NCBI GenBank assembly: GCA_964468915.1
Contig: CAYXWX010000001.1
Location: 10,055-74,054, forward strand
Reading direction: 5' to 3'
Length of the DNA stretch: 64,000 nt
Source of the DNA: an uncultured Pirellulaceae bacterium
GTDB taxonomy: Bacteria; Planctomycetota; Planctomycetia; Pirellulales; Pirellulaceae
The stretch's first letter is position 1, and each line of letters starts with the position of its first letter. A model generated the notes under the pieces. The model saw only the letters and a list, made by a program, of their open reading frames with translations, did not search any database and was not told the DNA's origin. Position numbers and translations under genes: made by a program. This document shows, in pieces, positions 7,314-40,457 of this stretch.

Positions 7314-8378
7314 TCACGCTGCCGATCGATCCGTCGTCTTGATGAAGTTGAGAATTTCGGCGACCGCCTGATAGATCTCCATCGGAATTTCTCCGCCCGC
7401 TTTGACGTGAGCATAAAGGAATCGGGCGACCGGTTTGCGTTCGACCACCGGCACACCGTTCTCCTTCGCGATTTTGATAATCTGCTTGGCAAGAAAGTCC
7501 GTTCCCTTTGCCACCACAATCGGTGCCGCAGACACTTCCGGATCATACTTCAATGCAACGGCGTAGTGAGTCGGGTTGGTAACGACGACGGTCGCTTTGG
7601 GCACTTCACGTGACACGCGTTGTTTTGCCATCTCGCTTTGCAACCGGCGAACGCGTGCTTTCAACTGAGGGTCTCCGTCGGTGTCTTTGTTTTCTTCTTT
7701 GATTTCCTGACGCGTCATCAAAAGATCCTGGCGTTGTTTCCAGATTTGAAAACCAAGGTCAACGACGCCAATCACAACCATGAAAACTGCCGTCGCAATG
7801 CCGATGTTCAGACACAACCTCGCCCCAACACCAAGCATCTGGCCATAAGTGGCTGCTCCTGAGAAAGTAATGTCTCGCAGGTCGGCGATGGTCAAAAACC
7901 ACGTAACCGCGATGATGGCAGCAGTTTTCGCCAGCGAGATCACCAGCTTGTTCAACGAGCGAGTTGAAAAAATGCGTTTGATGCCACTCGTCAACGAAAT
8001 CTTGCTCCATTTCATCTCAAGAGGTTTGAATGAAATGTTGAATCGCGTCTGCAACAGGCCCGCGGTGATGGCAACAAATGCCAGAGGGATCATCAATGCC
8101 ATGCAGGCAGTGCCAACCTGCTCAGTACTTCGACGCATTGCCAGCAGAATCGACTCCGGATGAGCCAGCATGGGATGAAAAAACGACAGTCGCTCACGAA
8201 TCGAAGCCAACATCGAATCAAAAAACCATTTACCCATCCCCATGAAGAACAACATCGCCACGAGCATAAGCAGGCCACCCACCAGCTCCGCACTGAACGC
8301 AAGCTGACCATCCTCGAACGCTTTCTGCCAGCGCCGCGCGGTCGGTTCCTCTGTGGGTTGTTCAGAACGGTCTTCCAT
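7314..8378 (-). CDS. flhB: flagellar export apparatus protein FlhB
   Basis: 354 aa. N-terminal EDRSEQPTEEPTARRWQKAFEDGQ. NPTH autocleavage motif (VVVTNPTHYAVALKY). C-terminal PVVERKPVARFLY. Confidence 0.92.
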   Translation of the reverse strand: MEDRSEQPTEEPTARRWQKAFEDGQLAFSAELVGGLLMLVAMLFFMGMGKWFFDSMLASIRERLSFFHPMLAHPESILLAMRRSTEQVGTACMALMIPLAFVAITAGLLQTRFNISFKPLEMKWSKISLTSGIKRIFSTRSLNKLVISLAKTAAIIAVTWFLTIADLRDITFSGAATYGQMLGVGARLCLNIGIATAVFMVVIGVVDLGFQIWKQRQDLLMTRQEIKEENKDTDGDPQLKARVRRLQSEMAKQRVSREVPKATVVVTNPTHYAVALKYDPEVSAAPIVVAKGTDFLAKQIIKIAKENGVPVVERKPVARFLYAHVKAGGEIPMEIYQAVAEILNFIKTTDRSAA

Positions 8379-16416: not shown

Positions 16417-16836
16417 ACAATCTGATTCGGTTGGGTTGGGTTTTCCGCTTCAGATAATGACTGAATTCCGCGGACCACCGCACGAATGGTCTTTTTGATT
16501 GACGGCATCCGTTGAGGGATCCAGTGCGCGTTTCGATTCAGCAAGATTGCACTCTTTCCGCGAGCAACGCCAACGCGGGACACCGCCATCAAGCCATCAG
16601 GCGTTCGATCGACTTGAAAATTTCTGAACCTGAAAACGCCTCGAAACGGAAACTTTCTCGATCGCCGGCTGCTACGGCAGGCATTTCAGTCACGACGACT
16701 CCGTCCCCGACATACGGCAAATGTCCAGAGTATTCGGATCAGAAAGCAGACTGTCGCATTACGTAAACTACCGTTCTGGTGAGCTGGCACTTTTCCGAAC
16801 CTTTCTTTTCTTTTACGGATCTATACAGGCAGAATC

Positions 16837-17616
16837 ATGGACATCGCAACAGTCATTGGACTGCTGGCGGGCTTTGGCCTGATCTTTACATCAATCGCGA
16901 TGGGCGGCGGCGGTGGCCTCGGCGCGTTTATCGATATCCCTTCGGCGATGATTACCGTTGGTGGATCGATCGCCGCGTTGTTCATCAACTTCCCGATGAA
17001 TGTCTGCTTCAGCTCGCTTTCTGTAATCAAGAAGTGCTTTCTGACCAAGGTTCCCGAATCCAAAGCGGTGATCGCTCAATTCAAAGAATTGGCCGTCGTC
17101 GTTCGCAAAGACGGAATGCTCGCACTTGAAAAAGAGCTGGAAAACATTGACGACGACTTCATGAAACGAGGGCTCGAAATCGTCATCAGCGGCGCTGAGG
17201 AAAACCAGATTCGAAATGTCCTGGAAACGGAACTTGCCGCCATCGAAGCTCGTCACATGATCGGAAAGAAAATCGTCGAATCGACCGGCGCGGCGGCACC
17301 TGCGTTCGGAATGATTGGCACGCTGGTCGGACTGGTTCAAATGTTGCAGTCTCTTGATGATCCAAGCAAAATCGGTGGAGGTATGGCGACCGCTCTGTTG
17401 ACCACCCTGTACGGAGCGATCATTGCGAATGTGGCGTGTATTCCTCTGGCGGGAAAGCTTGAAACGCGTTCTCAAGAAGAGGTCGCTTCGCGAGAACTGA
17501 TGATTTCCGGAATCTGTGCGTTGGCACAAGGGCTTGCACCACGAGCCGTCGAAGACAACCTGGTGGCGTATCTGTCGCCTAAATCTCGCAAGAGCGTTCA
17601 GGAGGCAACAGGCTAG
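16837..17616 (+). CDS. motA: flagellar stator protein MotA
   Basis: 259 aa, four TM segments. C-terminal channel region GMIGTLVGLVQMLQSL...ALLTTLYGAIIANVACIPLAGKL. Confidence 0.9.
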   Translation: MDIATVIGLLAGFGLIFTSIAMGGGGGLGAFIDIPSAMITVGGSIAALFINFPMNVCFSSLSVIKKCFLTKVPESKAVIAQFKELAVVVRKDGMLALEKELENIDDDFMKRGLEIVISGAEENQIRNVLETELAAIEARHMIGKKIVESTGAAAPAFGMIGTLVGLVQMLQSLDDPSKIGGGMATALLTTLYGAIIANVACIPLAGKLETRSQEEVASRELMISGICALAQGLAPRAVEDNLVAYLSPKSRKSVQEATG

Positions 17617-17702
17617 TGGTCCAGCAGACCTGAATTGACCGATCGTGGAGGTGCTTTCCGCCAAATCCGCTGGCGGTTAAGCAAGACTCAAACTGGTCAA
17701 TT
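17617..17702 (+). repeat. conserved flagellar intergenic element type 1, copy A (motA-motB1 spacer)
   Basis: An ungapped alignment of 17617-17698 with 35100-35181 gives 64/82 identical positions (hand count). Predicted helices are 17618-21/17627-30, 17633-40/17695-702 and 17658-63/17671-76. Confidence 0.85.
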
Positions 17703-17712
17703 CAAACTTCAC

Positions 17713-17733
17713 GGACCACTCGTGCTTTGTACC
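17713..17733 (+). repeat. 21-nt box GGACCACTCGTGCTTTGTACC (forward copy)
   Basis: 20/21 identical to the reverse complement of 35085-35105. Its first 8 nt are complementary to 17615-17622, which includes 2 nt of the motA TAG stop. Confidence 0.85.
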
Positions 17734-17767: not shown

Positions 17768-18451
17768 ATGGCGCGAGAGAAAATTCCACCACCACCGGGA
17801 GACGATATCCCCGCGTGGTTCATGACCTACAGTGACGTGATCACGCTGTTGATGACGTTCTTTATTCTGCTGCTGACCTTTGCCACGACAGAACCGGAAC
17901 GATTCGAAAAAACCCTGACCAGTACGTTCTCGAAAGGTGCTGCTACGGGAACCGTTGGTAAAAAACTGGAATCGCTGGACAACGACGCATGGGTCAGTCG
18001 AATCCGACCTCCTGCATCTCGCATCGCCATGCGTGGAGCCGAGATGCCGCCGATCATGGAACGACCAGCCAGCCAGTCTTTTGGCGAAGGTTTGCGATCA
18101 CTTGACGATGAGGAATCAAAACAGAACGAAATGACATCGCACTCGTTTGACGTGCCTTTCGCTCAACTTTTTAACAGTGGCGGAGAACTTACGGCAAACG
18201 GAAAACTGGTCTGTCAGATGTTGGCTGGCCAACTTCGCGAACTCCCGTTTCAGGCGGCAATTCAGTTTGCTCAGCCGCAGCAATCGACCCAACTGGTGAA
18301 AATGACTCAGTTTCTGTTTGACACCCAACAGACTCGGCCGGGGCAAGTTTCACTGAACCTGATCGTTCCCAATCAGAAGAAACCATTGGACATCAAGAAC
18401 GTCCGTATCACGATCAAGCGCTTCCTTGAAAACGCGGAGTCAACTCGATGA
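17768..18451 (+). CDS. motB: MotB-like stator subunit, paralog 1
   Basis: N-terminal plug/TM with the conserved Asp (PAWFMTYSDVITLLMTFFILLL). The C-domain is OmpA-like in layout, but I cannot find the canonical GHTD...NxxLSxxRA...NRRV residues. Confidence 0.7.
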   Translation: MAREKIPPPPGDDIPAWFMTYSDVITLLMTFFILLLTFATTEPERFEKTLTSTFSKGAATGTVGKKLESLDNDAWVSRIRPPASRIAMRGAEMPPIMERPASQSFGEGLRSLDDEESKQNEMTSHSFDVPFAQLFNSGGELTANGKLVCQMLAGQLRELPFQAAIQFAQPQQSTQLVKMTQFLFDTQQTRPGQVSLNLIVPNQKKPLDIKNVRITIKRFLENAESTR

Positions 18452-19233
18452 GTCGTAAGAAAAAAGCCCCACCAGACAAGCCAAGTAAGGCTTATCTGGT
18501 TTCATTCGGCGATACGATGACCGCTCTGCTGGCCTTCTTCATCGTTCTGAACTCCTTTGCCAAGGATCAAACGGGCGCCAACATGTACTCAGGCACTGGT
18601 TCCTTCATCAATTCGATGTCCTCGATCGGTCTTCCCGGAGACTTCCCCGGCGATCGGACCAGCCAGGTCGTCCAGCAAAAAGCCCCCTCACCGATCTATG
18701 CAGTCGAAAGCCCGGATGAGAAAAAAGACTCTCAAGAACAACTCGGGCCTGATGACAATCCGGATAAAAAGAGAATCATCGATCGACAAACGGACGAATT
18801 CAAACGGTTTTTGACGGAGGTCAATCGCAAGTTTGACGTTCAGGAAGAGCCCGCAACCGAAAACCAGATCGTATTTGACTCGTTTGAGAAACTACGCCGT
18901 GAAAAATCAGGTGGCAGCAATGTCGATGAACTCGATCCGCAGTACGATCCCTTGCAGGACAAAGCAATCAAAATCGCTTCAGATGCAATCAGCAAACTGA
19001 CCCGCAACGAATACGAACTGGAAATCGTCGTCTGGGCGCCGATGCCCAGCCCCAAAGCGATGGCTCGAACGATCACGACGGCAGTGGCGGTTCAAAACCA
19101 GATCGATCGCCTGTTCCGATTCACACCTCAGCAACGGGCCCGAGTCAGTTCATCCGCCAAGCCGTGGCTGTTCTTCGATGCCGCGCGGCCCAAGGTTTCG
19201 TTTATCCTGTCAAAAATTGACCGCAGCAATTGA
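18448..19233 (+). CDS. MotB-like stator subunit, paralog 2
   Basis: N-terminal TM with the conserved Asp (KAYLVSFGDTMTALLAFFIVLNSF). ATGA overlap with paralog 1. The C-domain again lacks an obvious peptidoglycan-binding signature. Confidence 0.65.
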   Translation: MSRKKKAPPDKPSKAYLVSFGDTMTALLAFFIVLNSFAKDQTGANMYSGTGSFINSMSSIGLPGDFPGDRTSQVVQQKAPSPIYAVESPDEKKDSQEQLGPDDNPDKKRIIDRQTDEFKRFLTEVNRKFDVQEEPATENQIVFDSFEKLRREKSGGSNVDELDPQYDPLQDKAIKIASDAISKLTRNEYELEIVVWAPMPSPKAMARTITTAVAVQNQIDRLFRFTPQQRARVSSSAKPWLFFDAARPKVSFILSKIDRSN

Positions 19234-33705: not shown

Positions 33706-33733
33706 AAACTAACTCATTTCAGGAGATGTTCGC

Positions 33734-34111
33734 ATGGATGCGATCAACAGCTTGCTGTCGTCTGTTCCTGTGCCATTCGTTGGTCAAAGTGAATCGAACG
33801 ACGCGGTATCCACCGCTGAGGACTTTCTGTCGGCACTTGAACAAACAGATTCACCGAATTCTCGTTCTGAGGTCACGCCCGATCGCGTTGAGGAAATGGC
33901 ATCGGAATTCGAATCTGTTTTCCTGTCCATGTTGCTGAAAGAGATGCGAAACACGCTGGACCAGGAGAACGGCGGGCTTTTTGGCGGCGATGAAAGTGAC
34001 ACCTTTGGAGGGATGTTTGACTTGTTTATGAGTCAACACCTCGCAGAAGCCTCACCGCTGGGAATATCAGATGCGGTAAGTTCTTACCTGGCCAACGTGC
34101 CACAATCTTAG
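33734..34111 (+). CDS. flgJ: rod-binding protein (FlgJ N-terminal domain only)
   Basis: 125 aa. FESVFLSMLLKEMRNT rod-binding motif. No muramidase domain is attached. Confidence 0.7.
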   Translation: MDAINSLLSSVPVPFVGQSESNDAVSTAEDFLSALEQTDSPNSRSEVTPDRVEEMASEFESVFLSMLLKEMRNTLDQENGGLFGGDESDTFGGMFDLFMSQHLAEASPLGISDAVSSYLANVPQS

Positions 34112-34387
34112 GGTTTAGTGCATGTTGCACTTAACTGTAGCGTCTGCGGCGTTTAAAAACCAAGCGAAAAGTATCGAAAAGCCGCTAGACTTAAACGAAA
34201 CGCGCTCTAATCCTGATTTGCAGTGCTGAAACTGCGGTGCCACGCACCACATGGGGTTTGTTTTTGGGCAAGGTTTAACGATTTTGTTCGATCACACTAC
34301 CAGCTGACCGGGAAAGCCTGGCAGAATTTTTCGCTCCAAACGTTTACCGACCGTGACTGTAAGATTGATGTAGTTGAAAGGAAAACA

Positions 34388-34972
34388 ATGGACGAAAACC
34401 CTCAAAAACATGTTCTTGTCGACAAGGCTGACAGAATTATTCGTCAATTGGAGTCCGAATCGGAATTTCTGGACGCGGTAATCGAATCCAGCCTGGAACT
34501 GCAAGATCTGCTGCGGGTGGGCAGAAGAAATCGAGCGCCCGCCGCTGACGAAAAACGTGATCCACCAACGGATGTCGCGCTGCGAATCGCGCGACTGAAA
34601 GAACGATTGGGCAGCCGATTCGAACCGCTCAAGTCCGGTCGAGACGCAATGATCGATCACATACGTTCGATTCAAGCTCACTCGAATTCGCGCAGCCCGC
34701 TGACGGCCAAAGAACTCGCTCGGCGTGTTCCAGATCCTCAACGAAGTCGTCTGACACAGCTACGGAATGAAATTCGTTCCAAACTGAATCGGATTCAAGC
34801 AATCTCAATGGGAAATCAAGCGGTATTGGTTTACACGATGGACTTCTATAACCGCCTGCTGACGGGATTGGCTCTTCAACCGGCGGATTCGTCAGGCTAC
34901 GACGCTTCTGGAGCATCGACTTCCGGGGCGACACATCGGATCCCGGGAAATTTCATCCAAACAACATGTTAG
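34388..34972 (+). CDS. FlgN-like putative export chaperone
   Basis: 195-aa helical protein immediately upstream of flgK. C-terminal part IRSKLNRIQAISMGNQAVLVYTMDFYNRLLTGL resembles the FlgN family. ATG at 34388 has an AAAGGAAAA upstream; the longest ORF starts at a GTG at 34223. Confidence 0.4.
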   Translation: MDENPQKHVLVDKADRIIRQLESESEFLDAVIESSLELQDLLRVGRRNRAPAADEKRDPPTDVALRIARLKERLGSRFEPLKSGRDAMIDHIRSIQAHSNSRSPLTAKELARRVPDPQRSRLTQLRNEIRSKLNRIQAISMGNQAVLVYTMDFYNRLLTGLALQPADSSGYDASGASTSGATHRIPGNFIQTTC

Positions 34973-35014
34973 TGCTTTGTTCCAACTGAAAATCAAGGTT
35001 GACCTGCCGAATCA
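34970..35014 (+). repeat. post-stop-codon element type 2, copy 1 (after flgN-like gene)
   Basis: Starts at the TAG stop. 40/45 identical (ungapped, hand count) to 38708-38752: TAGTGCTTTGYTCCAACTGAAMATCARGGTTGACCKRCCGAATCA. Confidence 0.85.
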
Positions 35015-35096
35015 TCATTCCGTGAACCCCGAAAGAAAAAGATAAAACGAGATCCTCCGCAAGTGACAACCAAAAAAATGGGTTGGAACAAAGCAC
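34972..35096 (+). repeat. perfect 15-bp inverted repeat flanking 95 nt (GTGCTTTGTTCCAAC ... GTTGGAACAAAGCAC)
   Basis: Arms at 34972-34986 and 35082-35096 are exact reverse complements. Could be a long RNA helix or MITE-like terminal inverted repeats. Confidence 0.9.
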
Positions 35097-35105
35097 GAGT
35101 GGTCC
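35085..35105 (-). repeat. 21-nt box (reverse copy, GGACCACTCGTGCTTTGTTCC on minus strand)
   Basis: 20/21 match to 17713-17733. It straddles the 3' arm of the 15-bp inverted repeat and the 5' end of type-1 copy B. Confidence 0.85.
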
Positions 35106-35185
35106 AGTAGACCTGAATGGATCGATCGTGGAAAAACTGTCCGCCAAATCGATTGGTGTGCAAGCACGACTTAAACGGGTCCGTT
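35100..35185 (+). repeat. conserved flagellar intergenic element type 1, copy B (flgN-like-flgK spacer)
   Basis: Partner of 17617-17702. The equivalent helix 35116-23/35178-85 is kept by one compensatory pair change and two changes to G-U pairs. Confidence 0.85.
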
Positions 35186-35228
35186 CAGCTCAGACAAAGC
35201 ACTACAACGAAACGCGATTGAAAACATC

Positions 35229-37190
35229 ATGAATTTTGGAATCGGTTTATCGGCGTTACAAGCCAGTCAATTCGCGATCGACAACGTGTCACAAAACATC
35301 GCCAATGCTGGCACGGAAGGTTACCACCGGCAGGTCGTACACATGGAAGTACGACAGTCGCAGCTGGTCGGACGCTTTTACCAGGGAACGGGCGTTGACG
35401 TCAATCGAGTTGAACGCGTTCGTGACCAGGTGATTGAGAGTGTCTATACCAATTCAATTTCTGACCTTGCCAAAATCGAACAACAAAATGTGATCGAACG
35501 ACAGATCGAGAACTACCTTCAGCCGGGCGAAGGCACCATCCAGAATGCGTTGACTGGTTTTTTTGATGAGGTCTCGCGTCTGTCGGCGAATCCGGGTGAG
35601 CGTGCACTGCGAACGTCGATCGTGAATCAGGGAGTCAACCTTGCGACTCGAACGCGCAATCTTTCGGATCAGTTTGGCGAACTGAAACAGTCCATTGATC
35701 AACAGATTGATTCAGAAGTCGATGCATTGAACAAGCAGCTTGAACGATTGGTTGAACTGCAAAGCCGAATTGAAACTTCCAGTTCCATTGATACTCCGAA
35801 CAACCTTCTTGACCAACGTGATCAACTGATCAATGAGATCGCTGAACGAGTGGATGTGCAACGTGTCGAACAACTGCAAAACAAGCTCGGTTTGACGCTG
35901 ACCGGAAGTCCGGTTTTCATCGGCGCTTCGCCAGTACGTTTTGAAGCATTTTCCAACCCCGACGGAACCAGGGAAATCCGGCTCGAAAACGGAGATCGAC
36001 CGCTCAAAATCAACGGTGGAAAAATTGCTTCGTTGCTGGAAACTCGTAACTCGATCACTGAAACCTATCAGTCGCAAGTCGATGAATTCGCAACCGGCCT
36101 GATGCGAGAACTTGATCAAGCCCATGCAACGGGACTCGGCCTGGAGGGTCCATTCGAACAGATATCCGGTTCACGTGCGGTCGACGACACCACGGTCCCT
36201 TTAGATGAATCAGGACTTGCCTTTCCCGTTGAAGAAGGTGAGCTTTTTCTAACCATCACGGACGGCAATGGTAACCGACGAACAACCGGGATTTCAATCG
36301 ATCCGGCGATTGATTCACTTGAAGATGTCGCTGCCAACATCAGCAACCTTGATAACGTTCAGGCCGTGGTCGATTCGAACACCGGAAAGCTGTCCGTTTT
36401 CGCCGAACCCGGATTCTCCTTTGACTTCACCGGACGACTGACAACCGTTCCCGACCTGACTGGCTTTACAGGCACGTCGACGCCTCAAATTGGTGGAGAA
36501 TTTGAAAATCCAGAGAACCGGCGACTGACGGTTTCGGTCGCGGGTTCAGGAACCATTGGGAAAACGCCCGGGCTTGTTGCCAACGTGACTGATGACCTTG
36601 GAAACGTTACGCAGGTTGAAATCGGGGAGGGGTACGAAGCCGGTTCCGAACTTGCGCTGGGCGATGGCACGTTCATCACATTCGGCCCGGGCGACGTCGG
36701 GGCAGGTGACACGTTTGAGTTCGACCAAGTGGCGAATTCTGACACGAGTGGAATCCTGTCGGCTTTGGGAATGAACAGCTTTTTCGAAGGCACCAACGCC
36801 AGCAACATCGCGGTGAACAGCAGGATCGTTGACAACCCTGATCGCATCGCGAGTTCAAAGTCTGGCGAAATCGCCGATACCAGAAATATTGAGAGCTTCC
36901 TTGTCCTCAGGGAGGCCCAGGTGCTTCAGGAGGGCACGCTGACCTTTGAAGATTTTCTCGCGGAAGCAACCGCCGCAATCGGAATCCAGGTTCAAAGTTC
37001 CGCCGCGTTGCAAAGCAGTATTGAACAATTGAACTTCGAATATGAAGCCGATCGAAACGCCATTTCGGGCGTTGACTTGAACGAGGAACTACTCGCGCTG
37101 AACCAGTATCAGAAATCTTATGATGCGGCGGTGCAGGTAATTCGAACGATGGATTCGATGTTCGAGACCCTCGTTAACATCATCCGTTAA
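35229..37190 (+). CDS. flgK: hook-associated protein 1 FlgK
   Basis: N-terminus GIGLSALQASQFAIDNVSQNIANAGTEGYHRQ. C-terminus SGVDLNEELLALNQYQKSYDAAVQVIRTMDSMF. Confidence 0.9.
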   Translation: MNFGIGLSALQASQFAIDNVSQNIANAGTEGYHRQVVHMEVRQSQLVGRFYQGTGVDVNRVERVRDQVIESVYTNSISDLAKIEQQNVIERQIENYLQPGEGTIQNALTGFFDEVSRLSANPGERALRTSIVNQGVNLATRTRNLSDQFGELKQSIDQQIDSEVDALNKQLERLVELQSRIETSSSIDTPNNLLDQRDQLINEIAERVDVQRVEQLQNKLGLTLTGSPVFIGASPVRFEAFSNPDGTREIRLENGDRPLKINGGKIASLLETRNSITETYQSQVDEFATGLMRELDQAHATGLGLEGPFEQISGSRAVDDTTVPLDESGLAFPVEEGELFLTITDGNGNRRTTGISIDPAIDSLEDVAANISNLDNVQAVVDSNTGKLSVFAEPGFSFDFTGRLTTVPDLTGFTGTSTPQIGGEFENPENRRLTVSVAGSGTIGKTPGLVANVTDDLGNVTQVEIGEGYEAGSELALGDGTFITFGPGDVGAGDTFEFDQVANSDTSGILSALGMNSFFEGTNASNIAVNSRIVDNPDRIASSKSGEIADTRNIESFLVLREAQVLQEGTLTFEDFLAEATAAIGIQVQSSAALQSSIEQLNFEYEADRNAISGVDLNEELLALNQYQKSYDAAVQVIRTMDSMFETLVNIIR

Positions 37191-37252: not shown

Positions 37253-38710
37253 ATGAATTTTCGTACAACCTCTTTTGCAAGCAGCAGCCAAGCGCTCCGA
37301 TACTCCGCGCAGTACAATGCCAATATTATCAAGTACCAGCGACAAATCTCATCGGGACTGCAACTTGAACGTTCGTCTGACGATCCCGTCACGTTTCGTC
37401 AAGTATCTTCTCTTTCGGTAAGGCTGCAGGAACTACAAAGCGAATCCAGCACCATCGCGGATTCGGAAGGGAAGTTGAACACCAGCGTCTCGCAACTGCA
37501 ACAAGCCAATACCTTGCTGGTTCGCGCGAAGAGCCTTGCGCAACAAGGCATCCAGGCAACCTCAACTGCCGAGCGCAACGCGTTAGCCGTTGAAGTTGAG
37601 GGAATACTTTTATCATTGCAGCAAACATCCAGAACGGAGGTTGCAGGTTCATTCCTGTATTCTGGCGCAAAAGCAAATACGGAGCCGTATCAGTTTTCTG
37701 GTCCTCAAGTCAGCGGAGGAACGTTATCCGTTGACTACCAGGGATCCGACAACAATGGGCGTGCGTACATCAATGATGCGATTTCGGTCGACACGTTCGC
37801 AAGAGCCGATCGAATATTCTCTGACGTTGACCGAACGGAAGCAGTCATCCTTGGCTCGACGGGCGCAAAGATCGGGCAGGGCACCGACAGTCTGGTTGGG
37901 CGAGCAACGTTACAAGTCAGGCACACCTCAACCAGTTATTCAGGAGCTTCGGGTGTCGCCCCCGGATTGAGTTCCGTCGGGGGAGATACCGTTCTGGGCC
38001 CCACGGGTGAACACACGTTGACCATCGAAGACACCAGCGGGACAGGTGACTTCGGCACCGTGTCGCTCAATGGTGCCGCCGCGGTCGAGTGGACTCGATC
38101 CGACACCGACTTACGAGTGGTCAGTAACGATGGTAAAGAAGTTTTCATCAACACGAGTACCATTTCCGTCGGATTCAATGGCACCATTGATATCACATCT
38201 GATGGAACAGTGAGCGTCGATGGAGGATTGACCACGACCGCGATCGACTTCTCTGCAAGCCAGACGATCGTCGATTCAACCACTGGCAAACAGACTCACA
38301 TCGATACCCGCGATGTTCGTTCGACGGGTGACGACTACCTGGAGTTCCCTGGAACGTCTGATGTGTTTCAGGTGCTGTTTGAGCTCTCGCAGGACCTTCG
38401 TGGGACACGAGATCTCAGTGACGTTGAACTGGCTGAATCACTCGACCGCCGCGTTGGTGACCTGGATCGATTGTCCGACCACGTCCTGGAGGTTCTGGGA
38501 AAGCAGGCGGCATCCCTGCAAACCTTGAATGAGCTGGACAACCGAGTGATCGACCTGCAGCTGGAAACCGAAACTCGCCTCAGCGAGTTGGCAGCGACCG
38601 ACATTCCTGCGACCGTTTTGCGTTTGCAAAATGACCAGAATCTGCTGGAATTCACGTATGCCGTTACGGCTCAGATTTCCAGCACGAATTTGCTGGACTT
38701 TCTTCGGTAG
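37253..38710 (+). CDS. flgL: hook-associated protein 3 FlgL
   Basis: N-terminus YQRQISSGLQLERSSDDPVTF (the SDDP motif is typical of FlgL rather than flagellin). C-terminal helical flagellin-like domain. Follows flgK. Confidence 0.8.
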   Translation: MNFRTTSFASSSQALRYSAQYNANIIKYQRQISSGLQLERSSDDPVTFRQVSSLSVRLQELQSESSTIADSEGKLNTSVSQLQQANTLLVRAKSLAQQGIQATSTAERNALAVEVEGILLSLQQTSRTEVAGSFLYSGAKANTEPYQFSGPQVSGGTLSVDYQGSDNNGRAYINDAISVDTFARADRIFSDVDRTEAVILGSTGAKIGQGTDSLVGRATLQVRHTSTSYSGASGVAPGLSSVGGDTVLGPTGEHTLTIEDTSGTGDFGTVSLNGAAAVEWTRSDTDLRVVSNDGKEVFINTSTISVGFNGTIDITSDGTVSVDGGLTTTAIDFSASQTIVDSTTGKQTHIDTRDVRSTGDDYLEFPGTSDVFQVLFELSQDLRGTRDLSDVELAESLDRRVGDLDRLSDHVLEVLGKQAASLQTLNELDNRVIDLQLETETRLSELAATDIPATVLRLQNDQNLLEFTYAVTAQISSTNLLDFLR

Positions 38711-38752
38711 TGCTTTGCTCCAACTGAACATCAGGGTTGACCGACCGAATCA
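38708..38752 (+). repeat. post-stop-codon element type 2, copy 2 (after flgL)
   Basis: Starts at the flgL TAG stop. Matches 34970-35014. A downstream box AGACAAAGCAGTAG (38784-38797) matches AGACAAAGCACTAC (35193-35206). Confidence 0.85.
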
Positions 38753-39034
38753 AAATAAAGTGCCAACCCCAAGTTTTAAGTTAGACAAAGCAGTAGTTTG
38801 AAACGTGAACTTTCGCCCCGTTGAACGGTCCAAGAGAGTGGCTGAGGTCGGGTGACGTATCCCGGCCATTGGGCGTGTTGACCTAATCGCAAACCGCCGC
38901 GTCAGCGAGAGATCTTTCGTCCCTCATTCGCGTTTCGGGTTTTGATTTTTACGTCAGAATTTTGTCCAGAATGGACTCGTAGCCTCGTCCACTGCGTCAG
39001 CAAGCCCCAACGCGTCTGGGCGTGATTGCTCCCG

Positions 39035-39197: not shown

Positions 39198-40457
39198 ATG
39201 TCCAAGCAACTTCCGTTCGACCTTGCCACCATTCAATCCATTGCCGAAAAATGGCCTACGCCGTTTTACTTGTATGATGAGGCCGGCATCCGCGAGACCG
39301 CCCGCCGCATGAGGAGTGCGTTCGGTTGGACTGATTTCCGGAATTATTTCGCGGTGAAGGCGACGCCCAACCCTCACCTTCTGAGAATTTTGATCGAAGA
39401 AGGCATGGGAGCGGATTGCTCAAGCGGGGCTGAGCTGGAGATATCTCGTCGTGTCGGATTGTCGGGCGAGGACATCATGTTCACCTCGAACAACACCATG
39501 GCCAAGGATTATCAGTTCGCCCGCGAGTTGGGCGCGATCATCAATCTGGATGACATCAACTACATCGACTATTTGAACGACAACGTTGGCGTGCCGGAAC
39601 TGGTTTGTTGCCGTTTCAATCCGGGAGAGATGAAAGCGGGCAATGTGATCATTGGGAATCCGGTCGAAGCCAAGTTCGGGTTCACCCGTCAGCAACTGTT
39701 TGACGGCTACCAGAAACTTAAAAGTCTTGGCGTCAAGGAATTCGGACTGCACACGATGGTCGCGTCGAATGAATTGAGCGTTGACTTCCATTTGGAAACA
39801 GCGGGACTACTTTTCGATATTGCCGCTGAACTTCACGCAGACCAGGGAATCAAGTTAAACTTCGTCAATCTGGGGGGTGGCGTCGGTGTTCCTTACAAAC
39901 CAGACCAGACCGCCTTCGCATGGGAAGATTTCGGCACTCGTCTTGGCCGACTGTACCAACGGAAGATTGTTGACCAAGGCGTTCCAGAGTTTCAAGTTGT
40001 TATGGAAAACGGCCGTTGCGTTACCGGTCCTCACGGCTACCTGGTGACTCAGGTTACCCATCGCAAGCATACGTATCGCGATTATGTTGGCGTTGATGCA
40101 ACCATGGCGAATCTGATGCGTCCTGGAATGTATGGATCGTATCATCACATTTCTGCCATCGGCAGCGACAATACAGAAATGTCACCCGTCGATGTGGTCG
40201 GCTCACTTTGCGAGAACAATGACAAATTCGCGATTCAGCGTCCCCTGCCGGCCGTCCAGCCCGGCGACTATCTGGCAATTCACGACGCAGGTGCCCACGG
40301 ACATTCGATGGGCTTTCAGTACAACGGAAAGTTACGCTCTGCCGAGTTGCTGTTACGGCCAAATGGCGAAGTGATTGAAATTCGCCGAGCCGAAACGCTG
40401 GAAGATTACTTCGGGACACTGAATTTTGACCCCGTACTCGAAGAAGCGCCGGCATAA
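39198..40457 (+). CDS. PLP-dependent group IV decarboxylase (diaminopimelate decarboxylase-like)
   Basis: FAVKATPNP (PLP Lys), NLGGGVGVPY, GSLCENNDKF, IHDAGAHGHSMGFQYNG. ATG at 39198 preferred to the ORF start at 39093. Confidence 0.75.
   Translation: MSKQLPFDLATIQSIAEKWPTPFYLYDEAGIRETARRMRSAFGWTDFRNYFAVKATPNPHLLRILIEEGMGADCSSGAELEISRRVGLSGEDIMFTSNNTMAKDYQFARELGAIINLDDINYIDYLNDNVGVPELVCCRFNPGEMKAGNVIIGNPVEAKFGFTRQQLFDGYQKLKSLGVKEFGLHTMVASNELSVDFHLETAGLLFDIAAELHADQGIKLNFVNLGGGVGVPYKPDQTAFAWEDFGTRLGRLYQRKIVDQGVPEFQVVMENGRCVTGPHGYLVTQVTHRKHTYRDYVGVDATMANLMRPGMYGSYHHISAIGSDNTEMSPVDVVGSLCENNDKFAIQRPLPAVQPGDYLAIHDAGAHGHSMGFQYNGKLRSAELLLRPNGEVIEIRRAETLEDYFGTLNFDPVLEEAPA

Follow-up and report, generated by a model that had tools for sequence, protein, structure and literature searches.

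Nested MITE-like insertions at a stop codon as the probable origin of a switch-like spacer between a flgN-like gene and flgK in an uncultured Pirellulaceae bacterium

Introduction

Why should a flgN-like gene and flgK be separated by 256 nt of repeated sequence in which an arm containing the upstream stop codon can pair with either of two partners? The spacer lies in a 64,000-nt stretch (the window) of contig CAYXWX010000001.1, from an uncultured Pirellulaceae bacterium (assembly GCA_964468915.1). The original prediction read its geometry as that of an attenuator-like switch or of long-range translational coupling, and offered a MITE-like insertion as the alternative. We find that the alternative is to be favoured: the spacer is probably a nest of small non-coding MITE-like mobile repeats which have come to lie on the stop codon in no lineage but this one.

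Structure of the spacer

The flgN-like ORF, which probably extends over 34388..34972 (+ strand), scores 29.1 bits against Pfam FlgN, just below the 30.5 cutoff, and ends in a TAG stop at 34970-72, the G of which is base 1 of an inserted repeat. The flgK gene (35229..37190, + strand; Pfam FlgK_D1, 147 bits; homologs found) begins with an ATG at 35229, leaving a spacer of 256 nt. All five features originally listed for this spacer lie where they had been placed and are not chance occurrences.

The first unit, which belongs to the type-2 family, is 125 nt long (34972..35096, + strand) and is bounded by perfect 15-bp terminal inverted repeats. Its left arm at 34972-86 (GTGCTTTGTTCCAAC) pairs with 35082-96 at 15/15 positions in a BLAST self-comparison, and in 2000 composition-matched simulated spacers an inverted repeat of 15 bp was reached in 0 and one of 10 bp in 1.85%. 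The unit is flanked by TA (34970-71) on the left and by GA (35097-98) on the right. A type-2 element starting at the stop codon had been predicted to end at 35014; the element is real, with 88% identity between 34972-35014 and 38710-52 (from the flgL TAG), but it runs further than this, to about 35035, and the first ~66 nt of the unit are homologous to 38710-38775. The 3' box at 35187-35204 is also type-2, matching the 3' end of the copy downstream of flgL at 15/18 positions.

This 3' box (+ strand), a type-2 right terminus (AGCTCAGACAAAGCAC) with TA after it, forms the outer 3' arm, in which CAAAGCACTA at 35195-204 is, as predicted, the exact complement of 34970-79 and can pair with it. If one mismatch is allowed, 7 occurrences of the motif TAGTGCTTTG are found where 2.1 would be expected; 6/7 are inside the three flagellar spacers. 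Ahead of the box lies a type-1 left terminus with its body (GTGGTCCAGTAGACCTGAAT...; 35099..35187, + strand), without the type-1 right terminus. The type-1 homology was confirmed, with 78% identity across 90 nt between 35098-35187 and 17615-17704 in the motA spacer, as did the preceding 21-nt box in opposite orientation (35085-35105 and 17713-17733 are 95% complementary). The 21-nt 5' end of type-1 was found twice in the window, where 0.01 occurrences were expected.

Of the three "arms" of the proposed helices, one is a left terminus and two are right termini, all belonging to a single terminal-inverted-repeat family, GTGCTTTGKTCCAACTGAA. At its outer ends the flgK spacer can be aligned with the two ends of the element downstream of flgL, and it is flanked there by TA/TA. 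The units here and at the two other sites are small and non-coding (84, 104 and 125 nt), the only ORFs across them being spurious ones on the reverse strand. It should be noted that the residual spacer ahead of the flgK ATG (35205..35228, + strand) is, by alignment, ~17 nt longer than the entire spacer of the orthologs, and that these ~17 nt are unaccounted for by insertion, which counts against it. A pre-insertion flgN frame obtained by deleting 34972-35204 was discarded: its read-through, ...TTCYNETRLKTS*, is seen in no ortholog, so that the deletion does not account for the exact 3' boundary or for the ~17 extra nt.

Copies downstream of motA and flgL

A complete type-1 element of 104 nt (17616..17719, + strand) begins with the G of the TAG that ends motA. 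It has the termini GTGGTCC / GGACCAC, and a longer imperfect inverted repeat ends in TGAATTGACC / GGTCAATTCA. The stop-codon helix that had been likened to that of the flgK spacer is present in the minimum-energy fold, with AGTGGTCC (17615-22) paired to GGACCACT (17713-20). The right end of the element is linked by TC to a solo type-2-like terminus, GTGCTTTGTACC (17722..17733, + strand; nhmmer E=0.08), which may be either a remnant or ancestral sequence, and this junction is the same as that of 35085-35105 on the opposite strand. Duplication of a single shared junction, GGACCAC-TC-GTGCTTTGT(A/T)CC, was considered and rejected because the polarity of the type-1 body relative to the junction is opposite in the two spacers.

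The third copy is a compact type-2 element of 84 nt (38710..38793, + strand), of which the first base is the G in the stop codon TAG of flgL and which is flanked by TA on both sides (38708-09 and 38794-95). It is an imperfect inverted repeat, is predicted to fold as a single hairpin and is followed by a gene for a non-flagellar decarboxylase.

Filled and empty sites in relatives

The sequences and their comparison with relatives show that the elements are insertions, that they belong to repeat families and that they are positioned at stop codons; all three sites (flgN-flgK, motA-motB and downstream of flgL) are empty in relatives. In 5/5 orthologous Pirellulaceae loci the gap between flgN and flgK is only 6-9 nt, and the spacer structure with its complementary arms is missing, which is, in its strongest form, an outcome named beforehand as refuting the switch. 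The FlgN C-terminus ends at the same residue in the orthologs, with an identical ...PGNFIQTTC*. Since flgK follows this same FlgN end within 6-9 nt in the orthologs, the 256-nt spacer is lineage-specific and starts at the TA of the stop codon. A junction that is normally this tight can accommodate a 256-nt structured insert.

The motA-motB spacer is 151 nt here and 40 and 39 nt in two relatives with MotA identities of 96% and 91% (L020 and L021, respectively); the difference in length is the 104-nt type-1 element, which stands immediately after the TAG and is absent from both. Downstream of flgL, the filled site equals the empty site of another relative (L002), which reads CGG TAA ATTTCG in the alignment, plus 84 nt and one TA. 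At the same flgL stop-codon TA a further relative (L001) carries an unrelated 91-nt hairpin insertion with TTA on either side. The flgL stop codon has thus received two unrelated elements in two lineages, each of which regenerated the TAG, and the TA of stop codons in tightly packed operons appears to be a recurrent landing site.

Predicted folding and sequence variation

All three spacer copies are predicted to form long hairpins. In the flgK spacer the inner helix (34972-86 / 35082-96) dominates the ensemble with a probability of 0.99, and the outer helix (34970-79 / 35195-204) has a probability of 0.007, although a fold made to contain the latter comes to −70.1 kcal/mol and is thus nearly iso-energetic with the alternative at −71.9 kcal/mol. 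The switch geometry therefore stands insofar as the two helices exclude each other and are close in energy. It fails at the output: the flgK start region (35205-35245) has the same predicted structure whichever helix is forced, and as a result no regulatory output is obvious. No Rfam family was found at gathering score across the window, or at E ≤ 5 for 34900-35300. The spacer also contained no sigma-70-like promoter and no intrinsic terminator, and one chance-level terminator-like site was found inside flgK.

Between the type-1 copies the 10-bp inner stem is kept by one compensatory and two G-U changes which preserve pairing on the + strand. This gives some signal of a constraint on pairing and counts against the favoured explanation. 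Within the species, comparison of the window with a second contig placed 2/9 SNPs within ~340 nt of elements, an elevated density, and another SNP, in the motA copy, disrupts a predicted pair with no compensating change; judged from these sequences, the elements would appear to be under no apparent constraint within the species.

Distribution of the termini

The terminus GTGCTTTGNTCCAACTGAA was found in three other Planctomycetota MAGs, always at intergenic sites and never beside flagellar genes. A genome scan gave 13 matches, compared with ~17 expected by chance from our own calculation (18 specified bases, 2 x 596 Gb). As this count is within chance, the case for the terminus rests on three other observations: similarity in the Planctomycetota MAG copies continues outside the searched pattern, in L007 and L012 an inverted partner end lies at a distance of 64-130 nt, and the matches are clustered in few MAGs, being dispersed in at least 4 copies in the HKST-UBA42 MAG and in 2 copies in the J06632_9 MAG. 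A literature search yielded no published planctomycete MITE with these termini. The elements represent a previously undescribed inverted-repeat family, with the left terminus GTGCTTTGKTCCAACTGAAAA, which is common to several Planctomycetota lineages.

On the source contig, of which ~83 kb were covered, elements were found at three sites, all of them stop codons and all in flagellar operons. That so few copies were seen there, and only at such sites, counts against a mobile repeat. The placement of three out of three copies in flagellar operons is not significant (P about 0.2, our own estimate) because roughly half of the covered contig is flagellar. Neither blastn-short nor an nhmmer profile of 17 type-2 termini revealed copies outside the three spacers when applied to the window, to the contig flanks on both sides and to seven orthologous loci. 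For the left end of type-1, a metagenome scan gave 19 matches, all chance and none with a type-1 body, and no copies of type-1 are known elsewhere; this negative is weak because the same scan also failed to recover a JGI contig (L018) in which the motA copy is known to be present. Scans of viral contigs gave a single chance match within coding sequence.

Termini (n = 20) were flanked by TA (n = 9), GA (n = 5), CA (n = 3), TC (n = 2) and TG (n = 1). Duplication of the TA is clean at 1/3 sites, that of flgL, where the empty site has one TA and the filled site two, and the internal junction and that at motA read GA/TC. The flanking dinucleotide may belong to the repeat itself, in which case it would not be a target-site duplication. 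Left and right ends differ from each other beyond about 15 nt, and of the 6 informative copies 5 have the same orientation as the gene upstream of them, which is not significant. In the loci examined, no pair of termini lay 0.7-3 kb apart and no autonomous element or transposase with these termini was identified, which counts against mobilisation; nor was any RAYT gene noticed among the genes listed for these loci.

Discussion

We would explain the spacer by small non-autonomous terminal-inverted-repeat elements which inserted at the stop-codon TA in this lineage. The outer ends would come from a type-2 element like the compact copy downstream of flgL, with its left terminus at 34972, its right terminus ending at 35202 and TA on both sides. 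Within it would lie ~156 nt of further repeat material, in which the second type-2 right terminus (35082-96) is joined to a type-1 element (35099-35187). One left and two right termini automatically yield two mutually exclusive helices. As the elements begin with G, insertion at TA regenerates the TAG and leaves the protein intact, so that the stop codon counts among the few TA sites that are tolerated in a tight operon. The elements would have been mobilised in trans by a transposase and would be transcribed together with the flagellar genes to give long RNA hairpins, with effects on expression that may be neutral or at most incidental, through mRNA processing or stability. On this explanation the "switch-like" architecture of the operon would be a by-product of nested repeat insertions, which is relevant to annotation, and comparison of filled and empty sites in relatives offers a quick way of telling the two apart.

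Bacterial MITEs are <200 bp in length, with terminal inverted repeats, TA at the termini and transcripts that form long stem-loops (PMC2229807). The TAG stop of a flanking ORF is often supplied by a repeat terminus, and comparable repeat families are present in Rhodopirellula baltica (PMC3733652). RUP of Streptococcus pneumoniae is a 107-bp element with inverted repeats which duplicates its TA target; an IS630-family transposase mobilises it in trans (PMC2229807). The same mechanism, with IS630-Spn1 as the mobilising element in the case of RUP, would apply by analogy to the present elements, except that no cognate IS with matching termini was seen in any locus examined here.

A cis-regulatory RNA switch, or translational coupling in which the stop-codon arm alternates between partners so that termination of flgN controls flgK, now seems highly improbable. 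Both helices do use one 5' arm which includes the stop codon, at similar energies, a comparable helix follows motA, and the three copies on this contig are all in flagellar operons; attenuator and riboswitch-type leaders likewise have two mutually exclusive helices with one common arm. However, the empty sites largely refute this reading, the arms are termini of a repeat which other genomes carry at non-flagellar sites, and the inner helix dominates with its 3' arm transcribed first. Attenuator-type leaders further differ from this spacer, which is not conserved in orthologs, in which neither helix sequesters a terminator or the start region, which shows no apparent ligand or leader-peptide logic and which matches no Rfam family. 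We give still less credence to independent small-RNA genes or promoters within the spacers, which the conserved 30-60-nt modules common to the copies might suggest. The candidate for such a promoter, TGAAAATC-N11-GCCGAATC within type-2, weakly resembles a sigma-28 promoter. It was dropped: a scan of the window and contig flanks with a simple consensus gave only one match, which lies outside these spacers and is not upstream of the flagellin gene, and thus no local sigma-28 consensus was available for comparison. The lack of a sigma-70-like promoter, an intrinsic terminator or an Rfam match in the spacer also speaks against independent genes, as does the module that follows flgL, which precedes the decarboxylase gene.

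It is unlikely, though less so, that MITE-like repeats have been exapted and that their RNA hairpins now uncouple or differentially stabilise flgN vs flgK and motA vs motB, a role which ERIC elements play in enterobacteria and NEMIS elements in Neisseria. The elements must be co-transcribed with these genes because they are placed inside junctions which are tight in relatives; the predicted long hairpins and the compensatory and wobble changes in the type-1 inner stem are consistent with such a role, and effects of MITEs on mRNA stability and on RNase III or RNase E processing have been published (PMC2229807, PMC2649163). ERIC/IRU and YPAL, hairpin repeats of ~127-168 bp in enterobacteria, are similarly placed between co-transcribed genes and in RNA form can change the stability of flanking cistrons (PMC2229807), but they have no sequence relationship to the present elements, which are nested and lie exactly on stop codons. 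Set against exaptation are the raised SNP density with its uncompensated pair-breaking SNP, relatives that do without the elements and the non-significant flagellar placement. We consider it similarly doubtful that the elements are of the REP/REPIN type, or other single-strand elements (Y1/HUH transposase) which insert 3' of a TAG-like target, and not cut-and-paste MITEs that duplicate TA. NTAG precedes 9/20 termini, and the distinct left and right ends and the (non-significant) co-orientation would also fit. GTAG-tagged REPs/REPINs and TIRYT-associated families, which are dispersed hairpins whose TAG terminus is often the upstream stop as it is here, have been reported along with transposases in R. 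baltica, itself a member of the Pirellulaceae (Di Nocera et al. 2013; PMC3733652). However, the terminal module GTGCTTTGKTCCAACTGAAAA is not self-complementary and is no palindrome of 20-40 nt, TAG is preceded by G in just 2/9 cases so that the tag is NTAG and not GTAG, GA and CA flanks occur too, no RAYT gene was noticed among the genes listed near copies, and the R. baltica families, GTAG-20 and GTAG-21 among them, differ in sequence. A more far-reaching version, to which we attach only a slight probability, is that of an undescribed stop-codon-targeting, strand-specific class of planctomycete repeats, which would move in single-stranded form to sites beside TAG and would have been co-opted in this lineage as RNA hairpins that uncouple the flagellar chaperone/substrate cistrons flgN/flgK and the stator cistrons motA/motB; on that version a conformational switch might even be formed by the competing 3' arms.

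For the favoured explanation, nested MITE-like insertion, a close parallel in form is given by the Correia/NEMIS elements of Neisseria, which are likewise non-coding, about 100-155 bp in length, with terminal inverted repeats and TA termini, and with which neighbouring genes are co-transcribed as long hairpins (PMC2229807, PMC2649163). They belong to another phylum and have no demonstrable sequence homology to the present elements, in which a clean TA duplication is present at just one site out of three, but among relatives they too show both filled and empty sites. The Correia inverted repeat begins TA-TAGTGG, which resembles the TAGTGG/TAGTGC found here.

Sequence features and anatomy of the flagellar spacers

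The flgN-like ORF, which scored 29.1 bits against Pfam FlgN (slightly below the cutoff), has a realistic start at 34388 and a TAG stop at 34970-72, leaving a spacer of 256 nt to the flgK start at 35229. The listed start (34223, GTG) is probably over-extended: gene calls on a near-identical same-species contig (L041) begin at the equivalent of 34388 (MDENPQKH...), giving a spacer of ~275 nt upstream of the flgN-like gene (noted for 33726-34387 and 16417-16836).

The features originally described in the flgN-flgK spacer were confirmed and are not due to chance. The 15-bp inverted repeat (34972-86/35082-96, the inner helix) is perfect, and a repeat of this kind occurred in 0 of 2000 simulated spacers; 35195-204 is exactly complementary to 34970-79 (the outer helix). 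TAGTGCTTTG, allowing ≤ 1 mismatch, was found 7 times vs 2.1 expected, including 6 times within three flagellar spacers (flgN-flgK, motA-motB and downstream of flgL). Two repeat families recur in these spacers. The type-2 element at the flgN-like stop (34972-35014) has 88% identity to the sequence that starts at the flgL TAG stop (38710-52), and the type-1 element (35098-35187) has 78% identity to 17615-17704, directly 3′ of the motA stop; the type-1 5′ end was found twice in the window vs 0.01 expected. The 21-nt box (35085-35105) is a near-exact reverse complement of 17713-33.

Side-by-side comparison of the three spacers gave a type-2 terminus, (T/G)A-GTGCTTTG(Y)TCCAAC, and a type-1 terminus, (T/G)A-GTGGTCC. 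The copies outside the flgN-flgK spacer are a compact 84-nt type-2 hairpin after flgL (38710-38793; GTGCTTTG...CAAAGCAG, TA on both flanks) and a 104-nt type-1 hairpin after motA (17616-17719; GTGGTCC...GGACCAC, flanked by TA and TC), the latter followed by a solo type-2 terminus (17722-33). The outer ends of the flgN-flgK spacer correspond to those of the flgL-downstream element, which they match over ~66 nt (5′) and in 15 of 18 positions (3′); the spacer interior (~35034-35189) holds a second type-2 right terminus joined by GA to the type-1 left end and body; ~17 nt are not accounted for by the repeats. One left and two right termini suffice to produce the mutually exclusive helices. The junction GGACCAC-TC-GTGCTTTGT(A/T)CC is common to the motA and flgK spacers but lies at opposite ends of the type-1 body, perhaps a sign that type-1 elements prefer to insert beside a type-2 terminus.

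Comparison with orthologous loci

The sequence comes from an uncultured Pirellulaceae close to Mariniblastus. In all five orthologous loci compared (FlgK identity 71, 71, 68, 56 and 52%), the flgN-like gene and flgK are separated by 6-9 nt, and in the three closest loci the FlgN C-terminus (...PGNFIQTTC*) is exactly that of the window. Between motA and motB, relatives with MotA identity of 96% and 91% have spacers of 40 and 39 nt, respectively, vs 151 nt in the window, the extra sequence being the type-1 element immediately 3′ of the TAG. After flgL, the window is longer than the empty site of the relative L002 (CGG TAA ATTTCG...), by the 84-nt element and one TA. As these sites are empty or short in relatives, all three copies are lineage-specific insertions at a stop-codon TA; the first base of the element is G, so that a TAG stop is restored at every insertion. 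The same insertions are present in same-species contigs from other samples (overall identity 99.7-99.9%).

The flgL stop codon has been hit twice independently. L001, the locus of a relative with 71% FlgK identity, carries a 91-nt hairpin (L001:8505-8595, GGCGAGTGG...CTTCCGCC, -28.7 kcal/mol) with TTA on both flanks, unrelated to the type-2 element of the window but located at exactly the same stop-codon TA, with TAA changed to TAG. Two elements at one stop codon in two lineages fit TA-targeting insertion followed by a selection filter: where genes are joined by a few nucleotides, the stop codon is among the few TA sites at which insertion is harmless.

Other differences and repeats were also seen. 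A type-3 repeat (38854-38946, + strand, vs 636-728, - strand; 76% identity over ~95 nt, exact 18-nt core GAGAGATCTTTCGTCCCT) has one copy downstream of flgL, adjoining the type-2 element; the other follows a GerE/LuxR-type regulator gene and has the orientation of that gene. The spacers 3′ of flgL in L001 and L002 lack the repeat. Two tandem MotB_plug genes with overlapping stop and start codons (17768-18451 and 18448-19233) lie 3′ of motA, an order kept in relatives. The Orn/DAP decarboxylase gene has an 18-nt in-frame indel (40325-40342) relative to L041, which is otherwise 99.7% identical.

The type-2 terminus in other genomes

A search for GTGCTTTGNTCCAACTGAA in 185,579 species-representative genomes returned 13 matches, a count which means little by itself since ~17 were expected by chance (our own calculation: 18 specified bases, 2 × 596 Gb). 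The seven matches in other phyla had no likeness to the element beyond the searched 19-mer and no inverted partner; three of them (L004, L009 and L010) have one extended sequence in common, apparently a conserved region and possibly part of a gene. The remaining six, in three Planctomycetota MAGs, are intergenic, with similarity running beyond the pattern (...AAAA.. GGGTT). In two loci of Planctomycetales MAG HKST-UBA42 (L007 and L012), the match is accompanied by a corresponding inverted terminus at a distance of 64-130 nt, and L007 contains an additional complete 127-nt copy. Neighbouring genes encode a beta-lactamase-like protein, at whose TAG stop the element again begins, an RND pump, purK/rex, a histidine kinase and sucC; none is flagellar. 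Interiors vary between genomes while termini are conserved, the pattern which would be expected if a shared type of transposase recognised the ends.

The HKST-UBA42 repeats (L007:3664-3727, L007:6160-6286, L012:4802-4931 and L011 around 5353) share the left terminus of the window's type-2 element, but differ from it in the interior (TTTCGRYGGTAGCGGAAG...GACGAGTTCCGCTAC) and at the right terminus (reverse complement GTGNTTTGTTCYAATTCG); one is a 64-nt deletion derivative. In Planctomycetota MAG J06632_9 (L015, reverse complement, 7684-7720), a solo right terminus, CCAAAGCAC, lies 17 nt 3′ of the TAA stop of an RND pump gene and adjoins the left end of the next element, TGGC-TA-GTGCTTTGG; the two form a 9-bp mini-hairpin. 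This looks like an arrangement of tandem or nested termini similar to that in the window.

Insertion or regulatory switch

The original prediction proposed an attenuator-like switch or translational coupling, with a MITE-like insertion as the alternative. The latter is supported by filled vs empty sites in relatives and by dispersal of the terminus in other Planctomycetota MAGs: the arms belong to repeat families, inserted and nested at a stop codon with the potential to form hairpins. Mobilisation would occur in trans by a transposase, possibly through IS630/Tc1-type, TA-duplicating cut-and-paste, as proposed for RUP. The flgL site, where the duplication is clean, is consistent with this mode, as are the outermost flanks of the flgK spacer, but not every flank is: 5 of 20 termini have GA. 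A single-strand mechanism of RAYT or TIRYT type, targeting NTAG, is a live rival; in its favour, termini of repeats of this class are reported often to supply TAG stops, and such families to be abundant in R. baltica (PMC3733652).

The switch is not supported, given the short junctions in all five orthologous loci and an unchanged predicted structure around the flgK start. The predicted minimum-energy fold of the spacer has an inner helix of 15/16 bp followed by type-1 as a second hairpin (ensemble probability 0.99 for the inner and 0.007 for the outer helix). A fold constrained to the outer helix is only 1.8 kcal/mol less stable (-70.1 vs -71.9 kcal/mol). On this modelling, the competition between the helices is physically real. 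No regulatory output of it was found: the predicted fold of 35205-35245, around the flgK start, is the same under either helix, no Rfam family matches the spacer, and scans of the spacer detected nothing promoter-like and no terminator that was convincing. RNA-level co-option of the inserts retains a small residual probability. The elements would be co-transcribed in flagellar mRNAs and fold there as hairpins. As with NEMIS and ERIC, for which such effects are known (PMC2229807, PMC2649163), they might plausibly influence mRNA processing or stability.

No further copies were found in the ~83 kb examined of the source contig (scaffold_166, 99.5 kb). All three sites are flagellar, which is not significant as about half of these ~83 kb is flagellar. 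No type-1 copies are known outside the source species, and a metagenome scan was uninformative because even the known motA copy on a JGI contig was missed.

Constraint on the elements

Between the two type-1 copies, the 10-bp inner stem shows a compensatory U-A to G-C change and two substitutions that give G-U pairs, each compatible with + strand pairing. With only two sequences this is a weak sign of possible pairing constraint; inverted repeats recognised by a transposase would also be expected to co-vary at their ends. Two observations count against constraint: of the 9 SNPs that separate the window from a same-species contig, 2 fall inside the ~340 nt of elements, and the single SNP in the motA copy disrupts a predicted pair with no compensation. 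Upstream of the flagellin gene in the source contig (L043:17330-17375), a hairpin, ATTGACCGGATGGATCCAGTCAAT, lies directly 3′ of the TAG of an 86-aa ORF and bears a faint likeness to the type-1 inner stem (TGAATTGACC/GGTCAATTCA).
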